Origin: Gemmatimonadota bacterium
Lineage (GTDB): Bacteria; Gemmatimonadota; Gemmatimonadetes; Palauibacterales; Palauibacteraceae
Assembly (NCBI GenBank): GCA_958295535.1
Contig: OY282356.1
Location: 810,593-874,592 of the forward strand
Length of the DNA: 64,000 nt
Direction: 5' to 3'
A model generated the notes under the pieces. The model saw nothing but the letters and a program-made list of their open reading frames with translations. It ran no database searches and was not told where the DNA came from. The position numbers and the translations under genes are program-made. This document shows positions 3,748-62,956 of the stretch, in pieces. Positions within the stretch are counted from its first letter, which is position 1, and each line of letters begins with the position of its first letter.

Positions 3748-4104
3748 TTGCTTGACCCATATCTCGGCATTCTTGTCCTCGGTCTCTTCGGCGTTCTGAA
3801 CGCCGCCGGGATGATGGCCGTCTCTCACTTGGTCGGATCCCGACGGCCCAATCCGGTCAAGGCGAGTCCCTACGAGTCGGGCATCCCCCCTCTCGGCACC
3901 ACCCGCGAACGCTTCTCCGTCAACTTCTACATAGTGGCGATGCTCTTCATCGTCCTCGACATCGAAACGCTCTTTATCATCCCCTGGGCCGTGATTTTCA
4001 GGGAGGTCGGGATGGGCGGGTTCGTGGAAATCACGGTCTTCCTGCTAGTTCTGGGTACCGGACTGGTGTATGCGTGGAAACGGGGGGCGCTGGAGTGGGA
4101 CTGA
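3748..4104 (+). CDS. nuoA: NADH-quinone oxidoreductase subunit A
   Basis: 118 aa, three TM helices, PYESGIPP...FYIVAMLFIVLDIETLFIIPWA motif. Confidence 0.95.
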   Translation: MLDPYLGILVLGLFGVLNAAGMMAVSHLVGSRRPNPVKASPYESGIPPLGTTRERFSVNFYIVAMLFIVLDIETLFIIPWAVIFREVGMGGFVEITVFLLVLGTGLVYAWKRGALEWD

Positions 4105-4212
4105 TGGGCGCTGGGCCGCAACTAGTGCGCGCTGGAGCGGGACTGGCGGGACATGAAGCGGGATCGCCGGGCGCTGGACGGGGAGGCCGAAGAGGATGAA
4201 GCGACTCGACAC
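4087..4212. repeat. 42-43-nt tandem repeat x3 spanning the nuoA stop and nuoB start
   Basis: GCGCTGGAGTGGGACTGATGGG (4087, real nuoA end), GCGCTGGAGCGGGACTGGCGGG (4129), GCGCTGGACGGGGAGGCCGAAG (4171). ATGAAGCG occurs at 4153 (decoy) and at 4196 (nuoB start). Confidence 0.8.
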
Positions 4213-4946: not shown

Positions 4947-6818
4947 ATGACGCCAGACGCGGTACGGACGCCGGCGATGGTGCGCGGAGCGCCGGCCGGC
5001 GATGATCCCGCGACCCACCCCTCCGTGCGGGCGCTGAAGGACCGCTTCGGCGCGAGCGTCCTCCGCATCGAGTCCGATGCGGTGGGCTATCCCGTCGTCT
5101 GGATGCCTCCGGATCTCAATGCGGACATGCTCCGCTTCCTGCGGGAGACCCCGGGCCAGACATACGACCTGCTGGCGGACATCATGGGGGCGCACACGGG
5201 CATCGGCGCGCCGGTCCAGCTCTGGTACCAGCTCTGGTCGATGGCCGAGGGACGCCAGCTCCGAGTGGCTTGCGAGGTTCCCATTTCCAACCTCGAGGTG
5301 GAGAGCGTGTCGGACCAGTGGCACGCGGCCAACTGGCTGGAGCGAGAGGTCTGGGACATGTTCGGGGTCGTTTTTCGGGGTCACCCGGACCTGCGCCGCA
5401 TCCTGATGCCGGAGAACTACGAGGAGGGATTCCCTCTCCGCAAGGAGTTCCCCCTGCGGGGCCGGTTCAGCCGCTCCGAGCAAGTGCGCCGGGCTCTGTC
5501 GCGGGACCTCCTGGACATCTACGCCGCCGAACAGCTCGAGATGGCGGGCTACGCCATCTCCGGCGATGACGGCGCGGTGGAAGCCCCGGACAACGGCGGG
5601 GGAGCGCCGATACTCGAGGTCGAGACCGGCGAGAGACTCGACGATGCGCTCGAAGGCGAACCCCTCATGATAAACATGGGTCCGCAGCATCCGGCGACTC
5701 ACGGGGTCCTCAGGCTCGTGCTCCAGCTTGACGGGGAGCGAGTCGTCCGGGCCATGCCTCACATCGGCTACCTCCACACGGGATTCGAGAAGACGTGCGA
5801 GTTCCGCGAATGGAACCAGTGCGTGCCGTACACGGACCGCATGGACTACCTCGCGCCCATGCTCTACAACATCGGCTACGCGGGGGCCGTGGAGGCGCTG
5901 CTCGGGGTCGGGATAACGGAGCGGTGCAGGGTCCTTCGAGTCGTTCTGGGCGAGTTGAACCGCATTCTCGGACATTTGCTCTGGCTGGGGACGACCGCGA
6001 TCGACATAGGCGCCTTCTCCGTCTTCCTGTACACGTTCCAGGAGCGCGAGCGCATTTACAACTTGCACGAGGCGTACACGGGCGGGAGGATCACCACCTC
6101 CGTCACCAGGGTCGGCGGCATGATGGCGGACCTGCCGACGGGGTGGACGACGGCCGCCCGAGACTTCGCGGCGACATTCCCGGCTACGATCGACCAGGTC
6201 GAACGGCTTCTCTCGGCGAACGCCATCTGGCAGGGCCGGACGGTGGACATCGGCGTGCTCGACGCGGAGACGGCGATCAGCTACGGCGTCACGGGACCTT
6301 CGCTGCGGGCGAGCGGGGTGGCGTACGATGTGCGCAAGGCGCGTCCCTATCTCGGGTACGACGAGTACGACTTCGATGTGCCCGTGGGATCGGCCGGGGA
6401 CGTGTACGACCGGTACCTGGTGCGGATGGAGGAGATGCGGCAGAGCGTCCGGATCATCGAGCAGGCGCTCGACCGGCTGCCCGCCGGATCCGTCAACATA
6501 GACGACTACCGCATATCGCTCCCGCCGAAGTCGGAGGCGATGGGATCGATAGACGCGATGATATCGCACTTCAAGCTCGTCATGGAAGGGGTGCGGGTTC
6601 CGGCCGGCGAGACGTGGTACTCGATCGAGAGCTCGAAGGGAGAGCTGGGCTTCGGCATCATCTCCGACGGCGGCGCCAAGCCGGTGCGCTGCCGCTTTCG
6701 GGGCCCCTCGTTCATCAACATCGCGGCGCTCCCCGAGCTCGTGAAGGGGGAGCTGGTGGCCGATGTGGTGGCGATCAACGCTTCGCTGGATGTGGTGTTG
6801 GGAGAGATCGACCGGTGA
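4947..6818 (+). CDS. nuoCD: fused NADH-quinone oxidoreductase subunits C and D
   Basis: The N-terminal half carries NuoC motifs ([32 protein letters not shown]). The C-terminal half carries NuoD motifs ([24 protein letters not shown]...GYLHTGFEK...DVVLGEIDR). It is one uninterrupted frame, with ATG 4947 preceded by GGAG. Confidence 0.9.
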
Positions 6819-12133: not shown

Positions 12134-12654
12134 TCTACGACTTCCTCTTCCAGACATTCGCGGCGAGCGCCATTCTGGGGGCGATCATCATGGTCACCCG
12201 CCGAAATCCGGTGACGGCGGTGATCTTTCTGGTCGGGGTCTTCTTCGCGGCGTCGGGGATGTTCCTCATGCTGGACGCGCACTACATCGCGGCGATCAAC
12301 GTGATCCTGTACGGGGGAGCCATCATGGTCCTCTTCCTCTTCGTGATCATGCTTCTCAACCTCGGCCACGCCGAATGGAGCGACCTGCGGGGGCCGCTCG
12401 GAGGCTTGGTCGGGGGTTCCATCGCGATAGCCTTTCTGGGCACCCTCACGCGGCTCTTCGGAGCTACCGGCGGGAGGCCCGCGGTGGAGGCGGCCGGCGA
12501 AGCGCTCCGGGCCGCGGCGGCAGAGCAGGGAGTGGTGGGCGTCGTGGCTAGACCGCTCTTCCAGGAGTACACGATCGTGCTCCAGGTCACTGGCATCCTG
12601 CTGCTCGCGTCCATCGTCGGCACGATCCTTCTCGCCGGGAAAGAGCGAGCGTGA
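12130..12654 (+). CDS. nuoJ: NADH-quinone oxidoreductase subunit J
   Basis: [28 protein letters not shown]...[25 protein letters not shown] overlap with nuoI. Confidence 0.9.
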
Positions 12655-12992
12655 GCGCGGGCGCGAGCGAAGCCGGCGCGTTGGCCGGTCTCGGCATCCA
12701 CGGGCTGATCGCCCTCTTCACGAGCGCGATCCTCTTCTCGATCGGCGTTATCGGCGTGCTGATCCGGCGGAACGCGATCATCGTCTTCATGTGCGTCGAG
12801 CTGATGCTCACCGCGGCGAACATCGCGCTCGTGGTCTTCTCCAGGCTGCACGGCATGGAGGGGCAGATACTCGTGTTCTTCGTGATGGCCGTCGCCGCTG
12901 CCGAGGCGGCCGTGGGCCTGGCGATCATCATCGCCGTCTTCCGCCACTACGAAGTCGTCGATCTGGACCGCTTCCGGCTGCTCAGATGGTGA
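12651..12992 (+). CDS. nuoK: NADH-quinone oxidoreductase subunit K
   Basis: [30 protein letters not shown]...[20 protein letters not shown] overlaps the nuoJ stop. Confidence 0.95.
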
Positions 12993-13250
12993 TGGCCGGG
13001 GCCGGAATCCAGGAGGGGGCGGCAACGATCCGCCGATTCCGACCGCGGACGACGCTCGGATGGCGATGACCGGGGCCGGAATCCAGGAGGGGGCGGTAAC
13101 GATCCGCCGATTCCGACCGCAGACGACGCTCGGATGGCGATGACCGGGGCCGGAATCCGGAAGGGGGCGGCAACGATCCGCCGATTCCGACCGCAGACGA
13201 CGCTCGGATGGCGATGACCGGAGCCGGAATCCAGGAGGGGGCGGCGGCCA
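12983..13250. repeat. 74-nt tandem repeat, about 3.6 copies, filling the nuoK-nuoL junction
   Basis: Units start at 12983, 13057, 13131 and 13205: C(A/G)GATGG(T/C)GATG(G/A)CCGG(G/A)GCCGGAATCC(A/G)G(G/A)AGGGGGCGG... Each copy reproduces the nuoL start codon context and first roughly 12 codons. Confidence 0.95.
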
Positions 13251-15301
13251 CGGGGGCGTTCCACCCGTTCCTCCCCGCGCTGATCCTGCTCCTGCCCCTC
13301 TTGGGGGCCATCGTGAACGGGGCGGGGGCCTTTCTCTGGCGCGGCAACAAGTCGGTGCCGTCGCTCGTCGGTCCGGCGGCTCTCGTCGGCTCGTTCGCGG
13401 TCGTGCTTCTCAACTTCATCGGCATGGCGGGCGCGGACATGCACGGGGCGGAAGTCGTCCGCCTCTGGAGCTGGATCGAGTCGGGGGATCTCCGGGTGGG
13501 AGCCGATCTGCACTTCGACCAGCTCTCGATGCTGATGTGCATGATCGTGACCGGCGTAGGCAGCCTGATCCACATCTACTCGGTGGGCTACATGCGCGAC
13601 GACCCGGGCTACTCGCGCTACTTCTCCTATCTGAACCTGTTCGTCTTCTTCATGCTCCTCCTCGTGCTCGGGGCCAACCTGCCGCTGATGTTCGTCGGTT
13701 GGGAGGGGGTGGGTCTCTGTTCCTACCTTCTAATCGGCTTCTGGTACGAGCGCCGGGAGTTCGCGAACGCCGGCAAGAAGGCGTTCATCATGAACCGGAT
13801 CGGCGACGCGGGCTTCCTGGTCGCCATCTTCCTCGTCTTCGTGACCTTCGGGACGCTCGACTTCGTGCCGATCCTCGAGGCGGCTCCCGACGAACTGAAG
13901 TACGGGGGGGCTCTGGCGACGGGCATCACGCTCCTGTTCTTCCTGGGGTGCACCGGGAAGTCGGCCCAGATTCCGCTCTACACCTGGCTGCCGGATGCCA
14001 TGGCGGGCCCGACTCCGGTCTCGGCGCTCATTCACGCGGCCACGATGGTCACCGCGGGCGTGTACCTGATCGCGCGCACGAGCGTGCTCTTCGCGCTGGC
14101 GCCGGTCTCCCAGGTCGTCGTGGCGGCGGTCGGGGCGGGAACGGCGCTCTTCGCGGCGTCGATCGCGCTCCAGCAGCACGACATCAAGAAGGTCTTGGCC
14201 TACTCGACGATCTCGCAGCTCGGCTACATGTTTCTCGCCGTGGGGGTCGGGGCGTTCACGGCGGGGGTGTTTCACCTGATGACGCACGCCTTCTTCAAGG
14301 GACTCCTCTTCCTGGGCGCCGGGGCGGTCATTCATTCGGTCCATCACGCGCTGGAGCGCCGGGGCGGCGGCCACGGAGAGGAGGGCGGCGGCGAGGCGAC
14401 TGCCGATGGGGAAGCTGCCGCAGACCCCAACGACATGCGGATCTACGGCGGCTTGCGAGCCTTCATGCCGAAGACTTGGGCCTTCATGTGGATCGCCACT
14501 CTGGCTATCGCGGGAGTCCCCCCGCTGGCCGGCTTCTTCTCGAAGGACGAGATCATCTGGTACGCGGGCGCGTACGGGCAGACCGTGCTCTGGTGCGTCG
14601 CGCTGGCCGCCGCCGTGCTGACCGCGATCTACATGACGCGCCTGATGGTGATGACCTTCCACGGCGAGAACCGGACCTTCGGCCGAGGCGGAGCGGGCGG
14701 CGCGGCCCGCCGCCTCCTGCACGAGGCGCCCGCCGTAATGTGGGTGCCGCTGGCCGTGCTGGCCGTCCTCTCGGCGACTGGAGGGTGGCTCAATATCCCG
14801 GATGCGCTCCCGCTGCTTCCGGGGGTCGACTGGCTGCACCACTGGCTCGAGCCCGTCTTCGAACCGGCGGCCGCCCTGGCGGAAGCGCAGGGGATCGCGG
14901 CGGCCCACCATGCGCCGGCCGGGGGCGGCGAGGGGCTGTGGGCCGTGATATCGGGCGTCGTCGCGACCGGGGCGGTGATCCTTACCGCGCGGGCGTTGCT
15001 CCGGAAGAGAGCGCCCGCCAGAGGCGAGGCGCCGCCCACGGCCGGCCTGGCCCGCGTCCTGCGCCACGGCTGGTTCGTCGATGAGTTCTACGACCGCGCG
15101 ATCGTCAGGCCTTCTCTCGCTCTCTGGCGCGGCTGCTGGAAGATAGCGGACGCCGCGCTGATAGACGGTCTCGTGAATGGCGCCGGACGCGGGCTCGCCC
15201 TGCTCGGGTGGGCCGGAGCGCAGCTGCAGAGCGGACGGGTGACGACCTATCTCGTCGTCTTCATGCTCGGCGCCTTGCTCGTCCTGGGCGTGCTGTCATG
15301 A
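13208..15301 (+). CDS. nuoL: NADH-quinone oxidoreductase subunit L
   Basis: 697 aa antiporter-like subunit (WEGVGLCSYLLIGFWY...AFIMNRIGDAGF...PLYTWLPDAMAGPTPVSALIHAATMVTAGVY). The alternative start ATG 13214 forms ATGA with the upstream mini-ORF stop. Confidence 0.95.
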   Translation: MAMTGAGIQEGAAATGAFHPFLPALILLLPLLGAIVNGAGAFLWRGNKSVPSLVGPAALVGSFAVVLLNFIGMAGADMHGAEVVRLWSWIESGDLRVGADLHFDQLSMLMCMIVTGVGSLIHIYSVGYMRDDPGYSRYFSYLNLFVFFMLLLVLGANLPLMFVGWEGVGLCSYLLIGFWYERREFANAGKKAFIMNRIGDAGFLVAIFLVFVTFGTLDFVPILEAAPDELKYGGALATGITLLFFLGCTGKSAQIPLYTWLPDAMAGPTPVSALIHAATMVTAGVYLIARTSVLFALAPVSQVVVAAVGAGTALFAASIALQQHDIKKVLAYSTISQLGYMFLAVGVGAFTAGVFHLMTHAFFKGLLFLGAGAVIHSVHHALERRGGGHGEEGGGEATADGEAAADPNDMRIYGGLRAFMPKTWAFMWIATLAIAGVPPLAGFFSKDEIIWYAGAYGQTVLWCVALAAAVLTAIYMTRLMVMTFHGENRTFGRGGAGGAARRLLHEAPAVMWVPLAVLAVLSATGGWLNIPDALPLLPGVDWLHHWLEPVFEPAAALAEAQGIAAAHHAPAGGGEGLWAVISGVVATGAVILTARALLRKRAPARGEAPPTAGLARVLRHGWFVDEFYDRAIVRPSLALWRGCWKIADAALIDGLVNGAGRGLALLGWAGAQLQSGRVTTYLVVFMLGALLVLGVLS

Positions 15302-17016
15302 CGTCGCTGTACGACGGCCACTGGATCCTGACGGCTCTGCTGGGCCTTCCGCTCCTCGGCGCGGCGGCGTGTCTGATGGTCCCGGAGCGACGCGCGAAGG
15401 TGGTCGCTCTCGCCACGACCGCCTTCCTGTTCGTCCTCTCGCTGCCGCTCTTCTGGACCTTCGACCAGGCGGAGCCCGGCTTCCAGAATCTCGTTTCGGC
15501 ACCGTGGATCGAAGCGTGGGGGATTTCGTATGCCGTGGGCGTGGACGGGATATCGATCCTCATGGTTCTGCTCACGACCTTCATCATGCCGTTCGCGGTG
15601 GCCGGGTCGTTCGCCCACGTGCGCCAGCGAGAGCGGGCCTTCTACGCCATGCTCCTCTTCCTGATGACCGGGATGATCGGCGTCTTCGTGGCTCTCGATC
15701 TCTTCCTCTTCTACGTCTTCTGGGAGATCATGCTGATTCCGATGTACTTCCTCATCGGGGTTTGGGGCGGCAAGCGGCGCATCTACTCGGCTGTCAAGTT
15801 CTTCCTCTATACGGCGGCCGGTTCGCTGCTGATGCTGGTCGCGATAGTGACGCTGGCGCGGCTTGCCCAGGAGGGCGGCGGAGGAGGGTGGAGCTTCGCC
15901 TACGAGGACATGCTGTCGCTGAATCTCGGGTACCGCATGCAGCTGTGGCTCTTCGCGGGCTTCGCGATCGCGTTCGCGATCAAGGTTCCCCTCTTCCCAT
16001 TCCACACATGGTTGCCGGATGCGCACGTCGAGGCGCCGACGGCCGGATCGGTGATCCTGGCCGGGGTGCTCCTGAAGATGGGGGCGTACGGCTTCCTGCG
16101 CTTCGGCCTTCCGCTCTTCCCGGCAGCGGCGACGGACCCGGCCGTGGTGAACGCGATGTTGGCGCTCGGCCTCGCCGGCATTCTGTATGCCGCCTGGGTC
16201 GCGGCCGTTCAGCCGGATGCCAAGAAGTTGATCGCGTACACCTCCGTCGCCCACCTCGGCTTCGTCGTCCTGGGCGTGTTCGGGCTCACCAGCCAGGGGA
16301 TCGAAGGGGGCATTCTCCAGATGGTGAACCACGGGATATCCACCGGTGCGCTCTTCCTGCTCGTGGGGATGCTCTACGAGCGCCGGGGAACGCGCCGGAT
16401 CGAGGACTTCGGCGGGATAGCCAAGGTGATGCCCCTCTTCGCGTTCGCGCTGGTGGTGGTCGCGCTTTCTTCGATCGGATTGCCCGGCACCAACGGCTTC
16501 GTGGGCGAATTCCTGATCCTTCTCGGCACATTCCGCAGCCACCCGTGGATCGCCGCCATAGCGACGACGGGAGTCATATTCGCCGCCTGCTACATGTTGC
16601 CCATGGTGCAGCGGATTCTCTTCAACTCGCTGGCGCGGGAAGAGAATCGCGCGCTCGCCGACATCGACCTCCGGGAGCGGCTGATCCTGGCGCCGCTGCT
16701 CGCGCTCATCATCCTGGTCGGCGTCTGGCCGAATCCATTTCTGAACCGGACGCGCGCTTCGACCGAGGCGCTCATACAGCATGTGCAGGAGGGCGCGGCG
16801 AGCGGGCCCGCGGCAACCGCGGCAGGGGCCGCCACCGCGGGCTTCGCCATTGCGCCGTCATGGGAAGCTGCCGGTCGAACCGGGCCTGAGGCGGCGGGGA
16901 GCGGCCAGTCGGCGGCAACCGCGGCAGGGGCGGCCGCCCCAAGCTTTGCCGGCGCGCCGTCGTCGGAAGCCGCCGCCGGGCGAACCGGGTCTCCCGATGG
17001 GGGAGGCGCGAGGTGA
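15298..17016 (+). CDS. nuoM: NADH-quinone oxidoreductase subunit M, with a repeat-bearing C-terminal extension
   Basis: FYVFWEIMLIPMYFLIGVWGG...FPFHTWLPDAHVEAPTAGSVILAGVLLKMG. ATG 15298 overlaps the nuoL stop (ATGA). Confidence 0.95.
   Translation: MTSLYDGHWILTALLGLPLLGAAACLMVPERRAKVVALATTAFLFVLSLPLFWTFDQAEPGFQNLVSAPWIEAWGISYAVGVDGISILMVLLTTFIMPFAVAGSFAHVRQRERAFYAMLLFLMTGMIGVFVALDLFLFYVFWEIMLIPMYFLIGVWGGKRRIYSAVKFFLYTAAGSLLMLVAIVTLARLAQEGGGGGWSFAYEDMLSLNLGYRMQLWLFAGFAIAFAIKVPLFPFHTWLPDAHVEAPTAGSVILAGVLLKMGAYGFLRFGLPLFPAAATDPAVVNAMLALGLAGILYAAWVAAVQPDAKKLIAYTSVAHLGFVVLGVFGLTSQGIEGGILQMVNHGISTGALFLLVGMLYERRGTRRIEDFGGIAKVMPLFAFALVVVALSSIGLPGTNGFVGEFLILLGTFRSHPWIAAIATTGVIFAACYMLPMVQRILFNSLAREENRALADIDLRERLILAPLLALIILVGVWPNPFLNRTRASTEALIQHVQEGAASGPAATAAGAATAGFAIAPSWEAAGRTGPEAAGSGQSAATAAGAAAPSFAGAPSSEAAAGRTGSPDGGGAR
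16810..17013 (+). repeat. In-frame 102-nt (34-aa) tandem duplication at the nuoM 3' end
   Basis: GCGGCAACCGCGGCAGGGGC starts both units (16810 and 16912). At the protein level: AATAAGAATAGFAIAPSWEAAGRTGP... / AATAAGAAAPSFAGAPSSEAAAGRTGS... Confidence 0.8.
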
Positions 17017-18656: not shown

Positions 18657-18683
18657 CGCCGGCTGTCCCGCTTCCGCGGCGTC
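18655..18683 (+). terminator. Hairpin immediately after the nuoN stop (candidate operon terminator, no U-tract)
   Basis: GACGCCG-N15-CGGCGTC, a 7-bp GC stem beginning in the TGA stop. Confidence 0.3.
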
Positions 18684-18814
18684 ATCCTCGCCCCTGCGGC
18701 CGGCGCGGTCGTCGTCGATGGACGTCGACGCTTGCGGTCGCGCCTGCGCCGCCATCTTTGCCGCTGCCGTCCGAGCAAGTCGTCGTCCGGCCATCTACGT
18801 GACTGAGCGCTCTC

Positions 18815-22785: not shown

Positions 22786-22968
22786 TGCGCCGTCCGCGCA
22801 CCCGGACTGCGCCGTCCGCGCAGGCCCCGGACCGCCGAGCGCCGGCCAGCCGCCACCCGCCGCGATGGCGTTCCGACGCTCGCCCGCCGGATGTGCTCCC
22901 GCCATGGCCGAGATTGCGCTTCGACGCTCGCCCGCCGGATGTGCCCGCGCCATGGCCGAGGTTGACAT
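22786..22968. repeat. Two short tandem duplications in the ndk-rpmF spacer (22-nt x2 and 49-nt x2)
   Basis: TGCGCCGTCCGCGCA at 22786 and 22808. TTC(C)GACGCTCGCCCGCCGGATGTGC(T)CC(CG)CCATGGCCGAG(A/G)TTG at 22871 and 22920. Confidence 0.7.
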
Positions 22969-31861: not shown

Positions 31862-32066
31862 GGGCCGGGCCCCGGCGACACCGCCTGTCCCGGCTGACAC
31901 CGCGCGTCCCGGCGCTATTACACCGGTTGCTCGGGGAGCGGGCGGGGACTTCGCGGCCCCTCGATACCGCGCATCCCGGCACTTTGGCGCCGGCTGGATT
32001 CGGGGAGCGGGCGGGGACTTCGCGGCCCCTCGATACCGCGCGTCCCGACGCTTTGACACCGGCCGG
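31862..32066. repeat. 69-nt tandem repeat, about 3 copies (first one diverged), upstream of kdsB
   Basis: TCGGGGAGCGGGCGGGGACTTCGCGGCCCCTCGATACCGCGC(A/G)TCCCG... starts at 31931 and 32000. A partial earlier copy is at 31862-31930. Confidence 0.85.
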
Positions 32067-36102: not shown

Positions 36103-36177
36103 AAAGAGTCCACGGCGAGCGGGGTGGTGGCTACGACGGCTCGCCGTTGCGACAGGTATCGCCGGTTGAGCTGTGAA
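36071..36177. repeat. 74-nt-period duplication of the kdsC 3' end including its stop
   Basis: CGTTGCGACAGGTATCGCCGGTTGCGCCGTGAA (36071) versus CGTTGCGACAGGTATCGCCGGTTGAGCTGTGAA (36145). The spacer forms the hairpin CGGCGAGC-N18-GCTCGCCG. Confidence 0.9.
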
Positions 36178-36216
36178 CGAGGAGAAATTCGTCATGGCGG
36201 CGACTCGGTGGTCGGC

Positions 36217-37086
36217 GTGAAGGCCGGCGCCAAGGGGCGTGCGTTGCGCATGCTCCTGTTTCCGGCGTTGCTGGGCGCCGCCGCCGCCGGATGCGGCTCC
36301 GGAGGCACGCTGCCGGCCGCCGAGCGGCTCTTCTCGGAAGATGTCGATCTAGTGATCTACGGAATGCGGACGAATGTCACTCGGGAAGGGATTAGGCGCG
36401 CGGTGGTGGAGGGAGACACGGCCGAGTTTCACGAAGGAAACGAGATTCACATTCGTCCGATGAGGGTCGTCTTCTACGATGGCATGGGCCGCCAGACCAC
36501 GGAGGTCACATCCGTGTATGGCGTGTTCGACGAAGTGGCGGGCGATCTGGACGCGACAGGGTCGGTGGTAGCCGTGGACCTGGTACTGGACCAGCGGCTG
36601 GAAACCGAGCATCTGAGATACGCGTACGCGGATGACCGCCTGTATGGCGACATGTCGTTTCGGCTGCTGCGCAATGCGGAAGGCATGGTCATCGAGGGCT
36701 CGTCATTCGAATCGGATCCGGCGCTCGACTCGGTGATCGTCTTCGATCCGTCGGGGCAGACGGGGCGTCTCGTTTCCAGCCCGGACGTGCCGGCGGCGGG
36801 AGACGATACTGCATCGGCGTCTCCGGACAGCGCGTCAGCGCCGGGAGACTCTCTGCAGGGCGCGCCCGGCGATACCACGGCGACGCCTGACGCCGAGTCG
36901 GCGGCGGGAGATTCTGCATCGGCGCCGCCGGACACTGCATCGGTATCGCCGGACACCGCCTCGGCGCTGCCGAACACCGCATCGGCGCCGCCGGACACCG
37001 TATCCGCGCCGCCGGACACTGCATCGGCTTCGCCGGACACCGCCTCGGCGCCGCCGGACACCGCCTCCGCGCCGCCGGATCCATGA
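36217..37086 (+). CDS. lptC: LptC-like LPS export protein, predicted lipoprotein with a C-terminal PDTASAP heptad-repeat tail
   Basis: Conserved position between kdsC and the OstA-like/lptB genes. Lipobox LLGAAAAGC. Beta-rich core about 150 aa long. The family call rests on context plus size. The ORF is open from 36124. Confidence 0.55.
   Translation: MKAGAKGRALRMLLFPALLGAAAAGCGSGGTLPAAERLFSEDVDLVIYGMRTNVTREGIRRAVVEGDTAEFHEGNEIHIRPMRVVFYDGMGRQTTEVTSVYGVFDEVAGDLDATGSVVAVDLVLDQRLETEHLRYAYADDRLYGDMSFRLLRNAEGMVIEGSSFESDPALDSVIVFDPSGQTGRLVSSPDVPAAGDDTASASPDSASAPGDSLQGAPGDTTATPDAESAAGDSASAPPDTASVSPDTASALPNTASAPPDTVSAPPDTASASPDTASAPPDTASAPPDP
36840..37083 (+). repeat. 21-nt (heptad) coding tandem array in the lptC tail
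   Basis: [87 protein letters not shown]. Confidence 0.9.
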
Positions 37087-39176
37087 CAGCCGGTTTCTCG
37101 AGAGTTTGTCTAGTATCGGCCGCAATCTCGTGCTTCTGCTACCCCCTCCTCGCGCAAGACGCAGACTCGGGCCGCCCGTCGGGGGCGATAGTCGGCAACT
37201 GTGCGTTGACCTGGGAGCCAGTCGACTCGAACACGCAGAGCTTCACCCACCGCGATACAGTTGGTGCGCACGTGACGCATCTAAGCGGGCGATATCTTTG
37301 GAGTTGCGGCTCGGCGACGATGGTTGCCGATAGCGCCATCAAGTGGGATGGCCCCGGCATGGTCGAGCTGTACGGAAACGTCCTCTATCGAGATAGCGTC
37401 CGCACTCTCAGGTCCGAGTTTCTCGTCTATCACCAGCTAAGGGACCTCGTTGTCGCAGAACGGTTCGTGAACTTGGAGCGTGCGTCCGACGGGTCTTTTC
37501 TCAGAGGTCCGCGTGTCGAGTTTCTGCGAGCCGTATCGGGCATCAACGCGGTCACGAGCGCCACTGGCCGCCCGATCGTGACATTCCGTGCCGAGAACGA
37601 TGAAGGAGGAGCCGGATCCTTCGAGATCCGGGCCGATAGCGTCGTCTTCGCCAGCGAGGACGAAGCTAGGTTCTTCGGTAACGCGATTATCGAGCAGAGC
37701 GGGCTTACGGCGAATGCCGACAGCGCGTATCTGATGCGGCAGGGCAACTCGGGGGTCCTCTGGGGAAGCCCGCGGATCGAGACCGAGGGGATGAGCGTCG
37801 AGGGCGATACCGTGCGGTTCGGCTCCGAGAGCGGGGAGTTGCGGCAAGTATCGGCCATCGGGCGCGGTCACGCAGTTGGCGAACGGTTCGAGGTGTCGGC
37901 CGACCGGATCGATGTCGCCATGCTTGAACGAGAGGCGAAGTCGGTTGTGGCTTACGGCAGCGGAATCGGCGAGGCGCAATCGGGCGAATCCCTTCTCTAT
38001 GGAGATTCGCTACACTTTGTCCTCTCTCAGGGGCGGATAGACACGATATACTCTGTGGGCGAGGCGGTAGCGATCCTTGGGGACAGCGCCGCAGCTGCAG
38101 CCGACTCGTTGGGTGGTCAGGGAGAAGAGATGGCGTCATCCGTTGGAGCCGGTGGCTTGCCGGGAGTCGGTGGAGCCGGGGACGAGGGCGACCTGCCGGC
38201 AGGCGCCAGTGACGGCGCACCGGGTGTCGAAGGCTTGAATGGCGGCGAGGATTCGACGGATGAACAGGAAAGCACGCCTCCGGAGCTTGGCATAGACGGC
38301 CCCGACAGCTGGGTCCGGGCGGACACGCTGGTCGCTATCTTCGAACGCCCGGGACATCTCTCGACTCCAGATTCTGCGGGAGCCCCTGCTGCTGCGGGAG
38401 CTCGGGAACCGGTATCCGCCGGTGAAGCGACGCCGGCCGACTCCCTGGCAGAACCGGGGGCGGATCCTGTGATGTCGCGCCTTCTCCTGATGGGATACGC
38501 GTCGGCTCTGTACCGGATCGTGCGAGATTCGACCGCTTCCGCACGGCCCTCGCGCAACTATCTGATAGGGGATCGCATTCAGATCGACTTCGTTGACGGA
38601 GAGCCGCGCACGGTCACGGGCGAGAATGCGGTCGGCATCTATCTTGAGCCTCAGCCCGTGCAGGCGGCGGAGGACTCGCTCGGAGCGTCGGCGGACTCCC
38701 TGGACGGCGCGGCCCGGGATTCGCTGGACGCCGCGCCGGGGGACACGGCGATTGCCACGCCGCCGGACACGGCGGCTGCCGCGCCACCCGACACGGCGAC
38801 TGCTACGCGACCGGACACGGCGGCTGCCGCGCCACCCGACACGGCGACTGCTACGCGACCGGACACGGCGACCGCCACGCCGCCGGACACGGCGACTGCC
38901 ACGCCACCGGACACTACGACCACAACGCCACGCTCGGTGGACGCTTCGTTGTCAGGTGCGAATAACGATCCCCTGGATCAGGCGCTTGCGATGCGCCTCG
39001 GCTCGGAGGGCTCGATGACGTTCCAACGCTGTCCCGTCTCGCCGGGCGTGGCGTGGCGCACCGGCGCACCCACCCCTCTCGCGTACCGGAGCCGCCGCTA
39101 CGACGCGCCGGTGTCGCCGGGCAGGCTGGAGAAGTTGTGTGCACGCCGGAGCCCAAGCGTGAGAAGCATCGGGTGA
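37083..39176 (+). CDS. large OstA/LptA-like periplasmic protein (697 aa) with an internal PDTA(A/T)A heptad array
   Basis: Signal peptide ...[10 protein letters not shown]. Repeated OstA-like segments ([23 protein letters not shown]..., [22 protein letters not shown]..., [25 protein letters not shown]...). Sits between lptC and lptB. ATGA overlap with lptC. Confidence 0.55.
38736..38930 (+). repeat. 21/42-nt coding tandem array ([16 protein letters not shown] ...)
   Basis: [65 protein letters not shown]. The 42-nt super-unit is repeated almost exactly. Confidence 0.9.
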
Positions 39177-45560: not shown

Positions 45561-45587
45561 TGGGCGGGCCGACTAGCCGAGATGCGG

Positions 45588-45675
45588 GCATCCGGCTGGC
45601 GTACAGTCCGCCGGACGCGCTTCGGCATCCGGATGGCGTACAATCCGCCGGACACGCTTCGACATCCGGAGGCGC
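45588..45675. repeat. 37-nt tandem repeat, about 2.3 copies, between the GT-C and YfhO-like genes
   Basis: GCATCCGGCTGGCGTACAGTCCGCCGGACGCGCTTCG / GCATCCGGATGGCGTACAATCCGCCGGACACGCTTCG / ACATCCGGAGGCG... Confidence 0.85.
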
Positions 45676-59494: not shown

Positions 59495-59640
59495 CCTGAG
59501 AGCTAGCTTCAGCCCCAGCGGCTCTGGCCTTCACCCGCCACCCTGACGAGTGAACCAATGACTTCAGTTGCTTCAGCCACCGGAGAGCCTGCTTCAGTCC
59601 CACAGTTGCTTCACCCACCGGAGAGCCTGCTTCAGCCCCA
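59495..59640. repeat. 38-nt tandem repeat, about 3.5 copies, starting in the gpsA stop region
   Basis: CAGTTGCTTCA(G/C)CCACCGGAGAGCCTGCTTCAG(T/C)CCCA at 59565 and 59603. Diverged copies at 59495-59547. The TCA (TGA on the minus strand) of the gpsA stop is repeated. Confidence 0.85.
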
Positions 59641-60645
59641 CCGCTCGGGCTTCGGCTCACGGGCCATCAGGTTCGCAAGTTCCTTGCGCGGCGAATGCCC
59701 GTCGTACACGATCCTGTAGACGCTCTCCGTGATCGGCATCTCGACGCCCAGGCTGCGGCTCAATTCGTAAGCCGCCCGGGTCGTCCACACTCCCTCGACA
59801 ACCTGTCCCGTGTGTGCGAGCGCCTCGAACTTGGAGCGTCCGGAGCCCATCGCCATGCCGAAGGATCGGTTGCGACTCAGAGGTCCGGTACATGTGAGAA
59901 CAAGATCGCCAAGTCCCGCGAGCCCGCCCAGCGTCGTCTCTGCCGCGCCCAACCTGACCGCGAGACGTACAACTTCCGCCAGCCCTCGGTTGATCAACGC
60001 CGCCCGCGCATTCGATCCCAACTCGAGCCCGTCCGAAATGCCCGCCGCCACGGCAATCACGTTCTTGAGCGCGCCGCCGAGCTCCACTCCAATCATGTCG
60101 TGTTGCGTATACACGCGGAAGTAGCCGTTTCGGAATGCCGCCTGAACCGCCAAGGCGCGCTCTTCGGCGTGGCCGGCGACCACGACCGCCGTCGGTAGCT
60201 GGCGTATCAACTCGTCCGCGAAGCTCGGACCGGACAGGACAACGGTGCGATGTCCCACATTCTCTCCCAGCGTATCGCCAACGACTTCGGACATCCGGCG
60301 GTGCGTCGCCAAGTCGATCCCCTTCGAAGTCGAAACCAGCAACTGCCTCCGTCCGATGTACGGCGCGGCCAGCTCGGCGACCTCCCGGACCGCGCGCGAA
60401 GGGCATGCGAGGACGATCAGGTCCGTGTCGTCGAGCGCCTCTCCGATATCCGAAGTTACGAAGCGCGGCTGGGCGAGTTCGAGGCCGGGCAGATAACGCT
60501 CGTTCGTGTTTTCGCTCCGCAGCTCTTCGACGTGCGCTTCGTTGCGGGCCCACAGCCGGACATCATGGCCGTTGCGTACCAGCACATCCGCCAGTGCGGT
60601 GCCCCAGCTGCCGGCTCCCAGCACGGCTACAGCCAACTTGCTCAT
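59632..60645 (-). CDS. gpsA: NAD(P)H-dependent glycerol-3-phosphate dehydrogenase
   Basis: VAVLGAGSWGTALA...SKGI...GALKNVIAVAAGISDGL..GSNARAALINRGLAE...LTCTGPLSRNR. The ATG overlaps the plsY stop (ATGA). Confidence 0.95.
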   Translation of the reverse strand: MSKLAVAVLGAGSWGTALADVLVRNGHDVRLWARNEAHVEELRSENTNERYLPGLELAQPRFVTSDIGEALDDTDLIVLACPSRAVREVAELAAPYIGRRQLLVSTSKGIDLATHRRMSEVVGDTLGENVGHRTVVLSGPSFADELIRQLPTAVVVAGHAEERALAVQAAFRNGYFRVYTQHDMIGVELGGALKNVIAVAAGISDGLELGSNARAALINRGLAEVVRLAVRLGAAETTLGGLAGLGDLVLTCTGPLSRNRSFGMAMGSGRSKFEALAHTGQVVEGVWTTRAAYELSRSLGVEMPITESVYRIVYDGHSPRKELANLMAREPKPERWG

Positions 60646-61412: not shown

Positions 61413-62956
61413 CGGTTCTCCGAACGCTTCTTCAGCTTGATTCTGATCGGGGAGCCTTCGAATCCCCAGGCTTCTCGAAAGCCTGCGGCGATGTATCTCA
61501 GGTAGTTCTCCTTGAGGTCGCGGGGCTGGTTCGACCATAACGCGAAGAGCGGCGGAGACGAGGCCACCTGGCTGCCGTAGAACAGGCGTACATCGCCACG
61601 CCCGCCCTGGGGCGGCTGGTGTCGCGCGACCAGCTTGCGAAGCACGCGGTTCACCTCCGCGGTGGGAATGCGCTGCGCGCGCGCCTCCCGCGCGGCTATG
61701 GCGAGGTCGATCACCTTCCGCACTCGCTGGCCCGTCTTGGCGGAGCACGTGATGGATGGCACCCAGACAAGATAGTGCGCCCGCGCTCGCAGTTCGCGTT
61801 CGAAGCTGGCCAGCGCCGACGGTCCCCTGTCCGTGGCCAGATCCCACTTGTTTGCAACGAAGACGAGACCCTTCCCGGCGTCAAGCGCCTGCTGGCCGAT
61901 GCGAAAGTCCTGATTCGCGACTCCGGCTTGCGCATCCACGAGGAGGAGGCATACATCGGCGCGCGAAATCGCCGATACGGCGCGCAGCCGCGCGAAGAAT
62001 TCGACGTCATCCGCGACTCGGGGCCGTCTCCGCAATCCCGCGGTGTCTATCAGGCGGATGCGGCGGCCTTCCTCCACATGGAACGTCGTGTCGACCGCGT
62101 CGCGAGTCGTCCCTGCCTCTTTGTCGACGATGACTCGCTCACGGCCGAGCAGGCGGTTGACGAAGCTGGATTTCCCGACGTTGGGCCGGCCCACCACCGC
62201 GATGGCAATCTCCTCGTCGCTTTCGAGCGCTGCGGGCGCTGTACCGCTCGCGGACCCGGCTGGCGCCGCCAGGGCGTCGGTCTCCTCCGGCACCGGCACG
62301 CTCTCGGCCTCCTCACGCACCGGCTCTATCCCGGCTTCCTCGTGCGGAGGCAGGTCCTCGATCCCCTCCGGCGCCGGCACGCTCTCGGCCTCCTCGCGCG
62401 CCGGCGCTATCCCGGCTTCCTCGTGCGGAGGCAGGTCCTCGATTCGTTCACGCGTCGGCACGGCGGGTAGCGCGTCGACTATCCGGTCGAGCAGGTCGCC
62501 CGACCCCTTGCCGCTCAGCGCCGACAGAGGCGTCGGCTCTCCCAGGCCGAGTTCGTAGAAGTCGAGGTGCGCCACCGCTTCCCCGAGTTCGTCAAGCTTG
62601 TTCACGGCAAGGACGACGGGACGGCCCGAGTGATGAAGCAGCTCCGCGACATAGCTGTCGACCGGATGGACTCCGTCGCGGCCGTCGGCCACGAGCACGA
62701 TAACGTCGGCGTGGCCGACCGCCACGTCGGCTTGGCGGCGCACCGCCCGGTCCAGGCGTTCATCTTGCCGCTCCTCTATACCGCCGGTATCGACCAGAAG
62801 AAAGCGCCGTCCGGCCCATTCGGCCTCCGCCCAGTGGCGGTCCCGCGTCACGCCAGGGCGTTCGGCGACGATCGCGGCCCGGCGGCCGAGGATGCGATTG
62901 AAGAGGGTCGACTTTCCGACGTTCGTACGGCCTACTATGGCGACTGTGTGGCGCAT
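61409..62956 (-). CDS. der: ribosome-associated GTPase Der (EngA), with an expanded acidic inter-domain linker
   Basis: Two G domains (GRTNVGKSTLFN...DTGG; GRPNVGKSSFVN...DTAG...NKWD) plus a KH-like C-terminus. Confidence 0.95.
   Translation of the reverse strand: MRHTVAIVGRTNVGKSTLFNRILGRRAAIVAERPGVTRDRHWAEAEWAGRRFLLVDTGGIEERQDERLDRAVRRQADVAVGHADVIVLVADGRDGVHPVDSYVAELLHHSGRPVVLAVNKLDELGEAVAHLDFYELGLGEPTPLSALSGKGSGDLLDRIVDALPAVPTRERIEDLPPHEEAGIAPAREEAESVPAPEGIEDLPPHEEAGIEPVREEAESVPVPEETDALAAPAGSASGTAPAALESDEEIAIAVVGRPNVGKSSFVNRLLGRERVIVDKEAGTTRDAVDTTFHVEEGRRIRLIDTAGLRRRPRVADDVEFFARLRAVSAISRADVCLLLVDAQAGVANQDFRIGQQALDAGKGLVFVANKWDLATDRGPSALASFERELRARAHYLVWVPSITCSAKTGQRVRKVIDLAIAAREARAQRIPTAEVNRVLRKLVARHQPPQGGRGDVRLFYGSQVASSPPLFALWSNQPRDLKENYLRYIAAGFREAWGFEGSPIRIKLKKRSENR
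62285..62446 (-). repeat. 81-nt (27-aa) in-frame tandem duplication in the Der linker
   Basis: IEDLPPHEEAGIAPAREEAESVPAPEG / IEDLPPHEEAGIEPVREEAESVPVPEE. The DNA units start at 62285 and 62366. Confidence 0.9.

Follow-up and report, generated by a model that had tools for sequence, protein, structure and literature searches.

The 64,000-nt stretch of DNA analyzed here (the window) carries a nuoA-N cluster, presumably co-transcribed judging by its gene order, in which nuoK and nuoL are separated by a tandem array. The nuoK gene (12651-12992, forward strand) encodes a 113-aa protein with the Oxidored_q2 domain (Pfam PF00420, identified on the identical protein of a sister strain). The nuoL gene (13208-15301, forward strand) encodes 697 aa from the ATG at 13208 or 695 aa from the ATG at 13214; the latter is the recorded start of the identical protein P0001, and homology to the NuoL proteins of relatives begins at about residue 17. 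Tandem Repeats Finder (TRF) delimited a 74-nt minisatellite at 12980-13245 on the forward strand, with 3.6 copies, 94% matches, no indels, and a score of 476. Its units lie at 12980-13053, 13054-13127, and 13128-13201, followed by a partial unit at 13202-13245. The 45-nt core of the unit occurred three times at 0-2 mismatches in the 64-kb window, against zero occurrences expected from 100 shuffles. The nuoK stop codon (TGA, 12990-12992) sits within ATGGTGATG, and the last 13 nt of nuoK form part of the first unit. An earlier note, made from the sequence alone, was right that the array exists, but the repeat begins 6 nt earlier than was stated there and takes in those last 13 nt of nuoK.

Each 74-nt unit consists of 44 nt that copy the native nuoK-stop/nuoL-start junction and another 30 nt, AACGATCCGCCGATTCCGACCGCAGACGAC, referred to here as the filler. 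The 44-nt part, GCTC(A/G)GATGG(T/C)GATG(G/A)CCGGGGCCGGAATCCAGGAGGGGGCGGC, comprises the final 13 nt of nuoK and the first 31 nt past the nuoK stop. The statement in the earlier note that the repeat copies the nuoL start thus holds for 44 of the 74 nt, as a copy of the nuoK/nuoL junction, but not for the other 30. When the flanking DNA was checked as a possible origin, the 44 nt were clearly junction-derived; the filler showed a marginal similarity to the 3' end of nuoK (p ~0.04) and no significant similarity to the reverse complement of the junction (p ~0.16) or to downstream nuoL (p ~0.31). The filler is without a clear source, and plain duplication of the junction does not account for it. 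A scan of the 64-kb window found the 74-nt unit at no second locus. The filler had no exact match in JGI metagenome contigs, a result of little weight, as ENA-derived data are the only ones in which the species appears. The unit also contains an imperfect inverted repeat with 14-nt arms that are 86% complementary (CCGGGGCCGGAATC / GATTCCGACCGCGG).

Three mini-ORFs of 27 codons each run through the array on the forward strand. Mini-ORF 1 (12986-13069) has ATG/GTG/ATG starts that overlap the nuoK TGA; its start is the position of the ancestral nuoL start, now severed from nuoL by the frame shift of the unit. Mini-ORF 2 (13060-13143; MAMTGAGIQEGAVTIRRFRPQTTLGWR) has a second ATG at 13066, which forms an ATGA with the stop codon (TGA) of mini-ORF 1, and mini-ORF 3 (13134-13217; MAMTGAGIRKGAATIRRFRPQTTLGWR) ends with a TGA at 13215-13217 that overlaps the nuoL ATG at 13214. 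Within ATGGCGATGA, the stop codon (TGA) of one mini-ORF shares bases with the second ATG of the unit that follows, the last mini-ORF ends on the nuoL start, and a stop and a start overlap or abut at all four junctions of the chain. Because each internal unit carries a copy of the nuoL start and 74 = 3 x 24 + 2, the frame opened by each copy spans 27 codons and closes at the TGA within the next ATGGCGATGA. The chain is thus bound to arise as a by-product, since the unit copies the native overlap and its length is 3n+2. The first 12 codons of the mini-ORFs are the duplicated N-terminus of NuoL. The array and mini-ORF geometry given in the earlier note, including the translations and the ATGA overlaps, agreed to the base with TRF, the list of open reading frames, and our translations. 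Two antisense ORFs in this region (12947-13573 and 12982-13575) were taken to be ordinary high-GC antisense frames.

To place the array in an evolutionary context, 80 related Gemmatimonadota loci were fetched and the 19 closest were compared at the junction. The closest relatives belong to Candidatus Palauibacter, order Palauibacterales (PMC10469786). At all 19 loci, nuoL starts on (A/G)TGGTGA overlapping the nuoK stop; nuoK ends in ...TGGTGA, with TGGTAA in three, and the called genes of three congeners place nuoK and nuoL in a -4 overlap. Downstream of the nuoL start, the relatives have an Ala/Gly-rich extension that varies in length, then CAGGAGGG (QEGA/G) and TTCCA(T/G)CCG (FHP/FQP), and their NuoL N-termini match the nuoL of the window once the units are removed, in a comparison that included MVSLGAVAGQEGAGAGFHP. 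No long-period array was found at the nuoK-nuoL junction in any of the 80 related genomes. The earlier note had suggested comparing this junction in relatives; since they are without a long-period array and keep the native overlap, the array is, by sequence comparison, a derived feature of one species.

The 5' part of nuoL is evolutionarily fluid across Palauibacter species in general. The extension between the start and the QEGAG-FHP motif ranges from 0 to ~30 residues (loci L002-L017 and L035, at ~2400-2560 of each locus), and in L002 and L003 it contains in-frame 9-nt repeats (GTGAGCATC, 2.7 copies). An independent and different repeat insertion occurs at the same nuoK-nuoL junction in a distant relative, a Longimicrobiales MAG (DASVDG010000056.1; L032 2325-2492). 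There, a spacer of ~170 nt holds two opposed arrays of 7-nt repeats (GGTCAGT, 5.4 copies, and CTGACAA, 5.3 copies), followed by AAAGGA and the nuoL ATG, and it forms a long hairpin (-72.5 kcal/mol, z = -4.3) that none of 200 shuffles equaled in stability.

An exact lookup of the NuoK protein led to a sister strain, represented by a contig of 3.05 Mb named in the style of hifiasm (ERZ19489113 s124.ptg000131l). The window and this contig are 99.15% identical over 20.2 kb aligned; Ndk is not identical between them, and the next NuoL in the protein collection is 79% identical. The species is sampled by two genomes in the searched collections, carrying one and three intervening units: the junction of the sister strain is shorter by exactly 148 nt (2 x 74), with one unit where the window has three. 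This long-read-style contig is independent of the window and has the same array, so the array is real and not a misread single-copy junction, and the copy-number polymorphism that the earlier note had proposed to look for exists between near-identical strains. The unit of the sister strain shows the states of the first unit of the window (u0) at unit positions 5, 11, and 17 and those of the third unit (u2), CCGGAAGG, at positions 32 and 35. It is thus a chimera of the first and third units of the window, and therefore most likely reflects the loss of two units. The divergence between units (4-7%) exceeds the synonymous divergence between the strains (~2%), so the array is probably older than the separation of the two strains. 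The unit of the sister strain has three private substitutions, all of them synonymous when read as part of a mini-ORF; as a post-hoc hint of constraint this is very small, and the changes are too few to weigh.

We then considered how nuoL might be translated downstream of the array. The anti-Shine-Dalgarno (anti-SD) duplexes at the nuoL starts are weak (-1.1/-5.7 kcal/mol). Here, nuoL resembles the other overlap-coupled nuo cistrons (nuoJ, -3.3; nuoK, -4.0; nuoM, -5.4 kcal/mol), unlike the genes preceded by a spacer (nuoB, -10.1; nuoI, -10.5; nuoN, -10.1; sucC, -9.8 kcal/mol). We rejected the AGGAGG of each unit as a ribosome-binding site, since it is not suitably spaced from any start codon and the motif corresponds to the QEG(A/G) coding motif of the relatives. 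Between the one-unit and the three-unit strain, pN/pS was 0.06 for nuoL, 0.07 for nuoM, and 0.05 for nuoN, indicating strong purifying selection; these genes are therefore functional and necessarily translated in both strains. The earlier note had proposed that termination-reinitiation coupling from nuoK to nuoL is relayed through the three peptides. Given the weak Shine-Dalgarno (SD) sequence of nuoL and the purifying selection on nuoL, nuoM, and nuoN, a passive relay from nuoK through the mini-ORFs to nuoL is mechanistically plausible; the relay itself is something we infer, and the chain probably keeps nuoL coupled to nuoK.

The chain and its peptides show no sign of selection. The array carries six substitutions within the chain, and 62% of random six-substitution simulations left all starts and stops intact (P = 0.62). 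The earlier note had read the intact geometry despite substitutions as constraint; this reading does not hold, as intactness is expected by chance in 62% of cases and the geometry is inherited with each copied overlap. All six inter-copy substitutions are nonsynonymous in the mini-ORF frames, and the GC contents at the three codon positions of the mini-ORFs were 0.61/0.68/0.75, against ~0.65/0.47/0.87 in ten real genes.

We also analyzed the abundance of tandem repeats in the window. Seven arrays with a period of at least 30 nt were found, corresponding to 1.09 per 10 kb. The density of such long-period arrays was 0.16 per 10 kb in the nuo loci of congeners and 0.02 in other Gemmatimonadota, so the window is ~7-fold richer than the congeners. 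Comparison of the two strains over ~33.6 kb showed four indels of at least 60 nt, all of them changes in the copy number of tandem repeats at gene ends: a 73-nt unit at 2784-2856 that copies the 3' end of a gene, its stop codon, and a hairpin; copies of the last 21 nt of nuoA, including the TGA, in the nuoA-nuoB spacer (three in the window and nine in the sister strain); two units of the 74-nt array between nuoK and nuoL; and an in-frame 102-nt duplication in the C-terminal tail of NuoM. No unit family was common to the arrays of the window, and the units of five arrays resembled each other at chance level only. A MIRU-like interspersed family is therefore rejected for the data in hand, and the many gene-boundary arrays with unrelated units argue for a mutational habit over a dedicated device. 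What they indicate is a general mutational bias, with selection acting as a filter, rather than a device specific to nuoK-nuoL.

The individual repeats differ in their relation to the adjoining genes. In the 73-nt array (2776-2957, 2.5 copies), the repeated sequence includes the final ~22 nt and the TGA of a gene ending at 2797, a radical SAM / Mob_synth_C protein in the gene calls of the sister strain; the array also duplicates a GC-rich hairpin (GGCGTC...GACGCC), and the sister strain has one unit fewer. In the nuoA-nuoB spacer (window 4085-4199; L082 1294-1534), the tandem copies of the nuoA end make the sister strain 126 nt longer. An ORF bridges this spacer: it opens at the ATG (4104) within a TGATG at the nuoA stop and closes at a TGA that shares bases with the nuoB ATG (ATGA, 4196-4199). 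Since the unit length is divisible by 3, its frame is preserved in the sister strain too. As an ancestral relay this ORF was rejected, the nuoA-nuoB junction of the congeners being compact (-10 to +25 nt); nuoB has a strong SD sequence of its own. In the Ala/Gly-rich NuoM tail (16810-16911), the 102-nt (34-codon) duplication is absent in the sister strain. The congeners L007 and L009 have short arrays near 6040-6150, a position that corresponds to the end of nuoM as estimated from the nuoL coordinates, and the NuoM tail may be a recurrent repeat hot spot.

Further arrays lie at 22859-22964, 31899-32063, 45587-45674, 59565-59641, and 62270-62462; their periods range from 37 to 81 nt, and no two are related in sequence. 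The arrays beginning at 22859, 31899, and 45587 lie between ORFs of high GC3, and the first two have equal copy numbers in both strains. Two adjacent ORFs end in low-complexity Pro/Thr/Ala tails: a 21-nt in-frame repeat (36916-37079; ASAPPDT, 7.8 copies) forms the C-terminal end of ORF 36124-37086, and a 24-nt in-frame repeat (38741-38914; DTATATPP, 7.2 copies) that of ORF 37083-39176. This species has spacers of ~150 nt, for example at 18657-18812, where its congeners (L083-L085) have 0-25 nt or an overlap, such as the 1-nt overlap of nuoN and pgm. Intergenic expansion therefore seems to be general, extending beyond nuoK-nuoL.

Ordinary bacterial variable-number tandem repeats (VNTRs) arise by tandem duplication and change by slipped-strand mispairing or unequal recombination, and the intergenic ones described so far are mostly located in promoters or untranslated spacers. 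The array resembles them in its head-to-tail copies, in its partial last copy that matches the flank, in its absence from sister species, and in the whole-unit difference of 148 nt between strains with the u0/u2 recombinant unit. It differs in that it straddles an overlapping stop and start, so that each copy regenerates the coupling site, and in that simple duplication does not explain the 30-nt filler. Mycobacterial interspersed repetitive units (MIRUs) are closer in form. As summarized in three sources (PMC12548453, PMC3184786, PMC2734929), MIRUs were first reported in the senX3-regX3 intergenic region by Supply et al. (1997); they are 40-100-bp tandem units in operon spacers whose ORF ends overlap adjacent genes, with -4 (ATGA-type) coupling downstream and strain-variable copies. 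These sources, citing Supply 1997, note that differential translation within the polycistron was already proposed for them, and describe one sequence family at ~41 loci that is thought to transpose with short direct repeats. A correlation between repeat length and expression has been reported for a mycobacterial intergenic VNTR (PMC2734929). The earlier note had claimed that the arrangement was without precedent; insofar as these sources describe them, MIRUs, as tandem intergenic units with ORFs that overlap the flanking operon cistrons, provide one. For complex I operons, our literature search turned up no array of this type.

The array shares with MIRUs a unit length within the 40-100-bp range (74-nt period, 3.6 copies), a position inside an operon (nuoK-nuoL), mini-ORFs that overlap the flanking genes (ATGGTGATG at the nuoK stop; ATGGCGATGA at the unit boundaries and the nuoL start), and a copy number that varies between strains (three vs. 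one). In contrast to MIRUs, its unit is confined to a single locus in the 64 kb, the other arrays of the window are unrelated to it, and its filler is absent from the JGI metagenomes. The junction of the relatives is "empty," yet 44 of the 74 nt are duplicated native junction and no 4-nt target duplication is present. The host, moreover, belongs to Gemmatimonadota and not to Mycobacterium. The array works like the MIRU-VNTRs but is not a member of the MIRU family. Termination-reinitiation at overlapping ATGA or TGATG sequences is known, as are short "delivery" ORFs upstream of a coupled gene (reviewed in PMC12548453). The chain has the same overlap motifs and an SD-poor downstream start, and a short ORF that merely hands over a ribosome is the same concept; the difference is that three putative delivery ORFs are chained in series here.

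Based on these results, we consider it likely that the array is a young, species-specific, copy-variable minisatellite derived by tandem duplication of the nuoK-stop/nuoL-start DNA, with the mini-ORF chain as a by-product that would act as a relay. The starting state would have been that of the relatives, with nuoL on (A/G)TGGTGA overlapping the nuoK TGA, and a tandem duplication across this stop and start would have built the array. A duplication that is not a multiple of three would be bearable in the interior of an operon only across a gene boundary, because its first copy ends nuoK and its last copy begins nuoL. Ribosomes terminating on nuoK would reinitiate at the overlapping ATG/GTG and be passed from unit to unit through the ATGA overlaps to nuoL, the peptides of the mini-ORFs being themselves presumably non-functional. 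The array would be tolerated, despite the lack of a strong SD sequence at nuoL, because this relay delivers ribosomes. The copy number would shift through unequal recombination or slippage, and the single unit of the sister strain would have resulted from the loss of two units, most likely by unequal recombination. The array would then be one case of a species-wide habit of forming tandem repeats at gene ends, and its mini-ORF chain is most likely a tolerated by-product rather than a new regulatory device.

Several other explanations were weighed against this one. The subunits of complex I assemble 1:1, so fewer distal subunits would be of no obvious benefit. This speaks against an adaptive rheostat or contingency locus, in which each reinitiation step would lose ribosomes and the copy number would tune NuoL/M/N relative to NuoA-K. 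Such a locus would fit the different copy numbers of near-identical strains and a nuoL start without a strong SD sequence, whose output should depend on upstream translation; it is also in line with the VNTR length/expression correlation (PMC2734929) and with the differential translation proposed for MIRUs (PMC2734929, citing Supply 1997). However, the many similar arrays at unrelated gene ends fit a mutational bias, neither the geometry nor the peptides show signs of selection, and two alleles are known; we regard the rheostat as unlikely. Its extended form, in which one vs. three units set the NuoL/M/N-to-NuoA-K ratio and the boundary minisatellites, including those at nuoA-nuoB and the NuoM tail, serve as heritable, reversible expression dials of the respiratory operon, seems to us somewhat less likely still. 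That the mini-ORFs encode functional 27-aa micropeptides would agree with their being intact, with ATG starts, in both strains; but all six inter-copy differences alter the amino acid, the codon-position composition is non-coding-like, the ORFs are absent from every other species compared, and the first 12 codons are borrowed from NuoL, making this reading highly improbable.

Hairpins in the units might instead stabilize or process the nuo mRNA, or pause transcription between nuoK and nuoL, as the complementary arms in each unit and the very stable repeat-built hairpin of L032 at the same junction could suggest. The folding of the array, however, was no more stable than that of dinucleotide shuffles (whole array, z +0.85; units, z -1.0 to +1.5), one substitution in the sister strain weakens the stem of the unit, no terminator- or promoter-like site was found in the array, and Rfam gave no meaningful match for it (best E = 0.63, to a miRNA model), so we give an RNA element little credence. 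These results also leave the tunable attenuator suggested in the earlier note unsupported: with no terminator-like site and no extra stability, the array lacks the terminator/antiterminator hairpins of a leader-peptide attenuator, and it is one of several gene-boundary minisatellites. If a MIRU-like or MITE-like mobile element had landed on the nuoL start codon and multiplied there, this would account for the 74-nt unit size, the operon-internal site, the overlapping ORFs, and the imperfect inverted repeat, all of which resemble MIRUs as described in PMC3184786 and PMC12548453. Such an origin is nevertheless very improbable, given that 44 of the 74 nt are native junction with both ends anchored in sequence homologous to the relatives, that the 64-kb window has no further copy of the unit and the filler is absent from the JGI metagenomes, and that the other arrays have unrelated units and no short target-site duplication is seen. 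Tandem repeats are a classic source of assembly errors, and the extra copies could in principle be absent from the cell. Yet the array is not an artefact of this kind, in our view almost certainly, because its copies differ by point substitutions and a second contig carries it: the array, at 266 nt, is far below long-read length, and the independent multi-megabase contig has the same array with a different whole-unit count and a recombinant unit.

No novel type of regulation is revealed by the minisatellite. Should the relay operate as we infer, it would be a clean natural example of a duplication across an overlapping stop and start that brings its own coupling site, and such a duplication could expand within an essential operon while the genes after it remain expressed. 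The same reasoning has been put forward for the mycobacterial MIRUs; here it would have arisen from local DNA, in a phylum unrelated to theirs. Strains of this uncultured lineage, which is associated with sponges and marine habitats, can be typed by the array as it stands. The species is also unusually rich in minisatellites at gene boundaries, a feature that may be informative about how it replicates or repairs its DNA.
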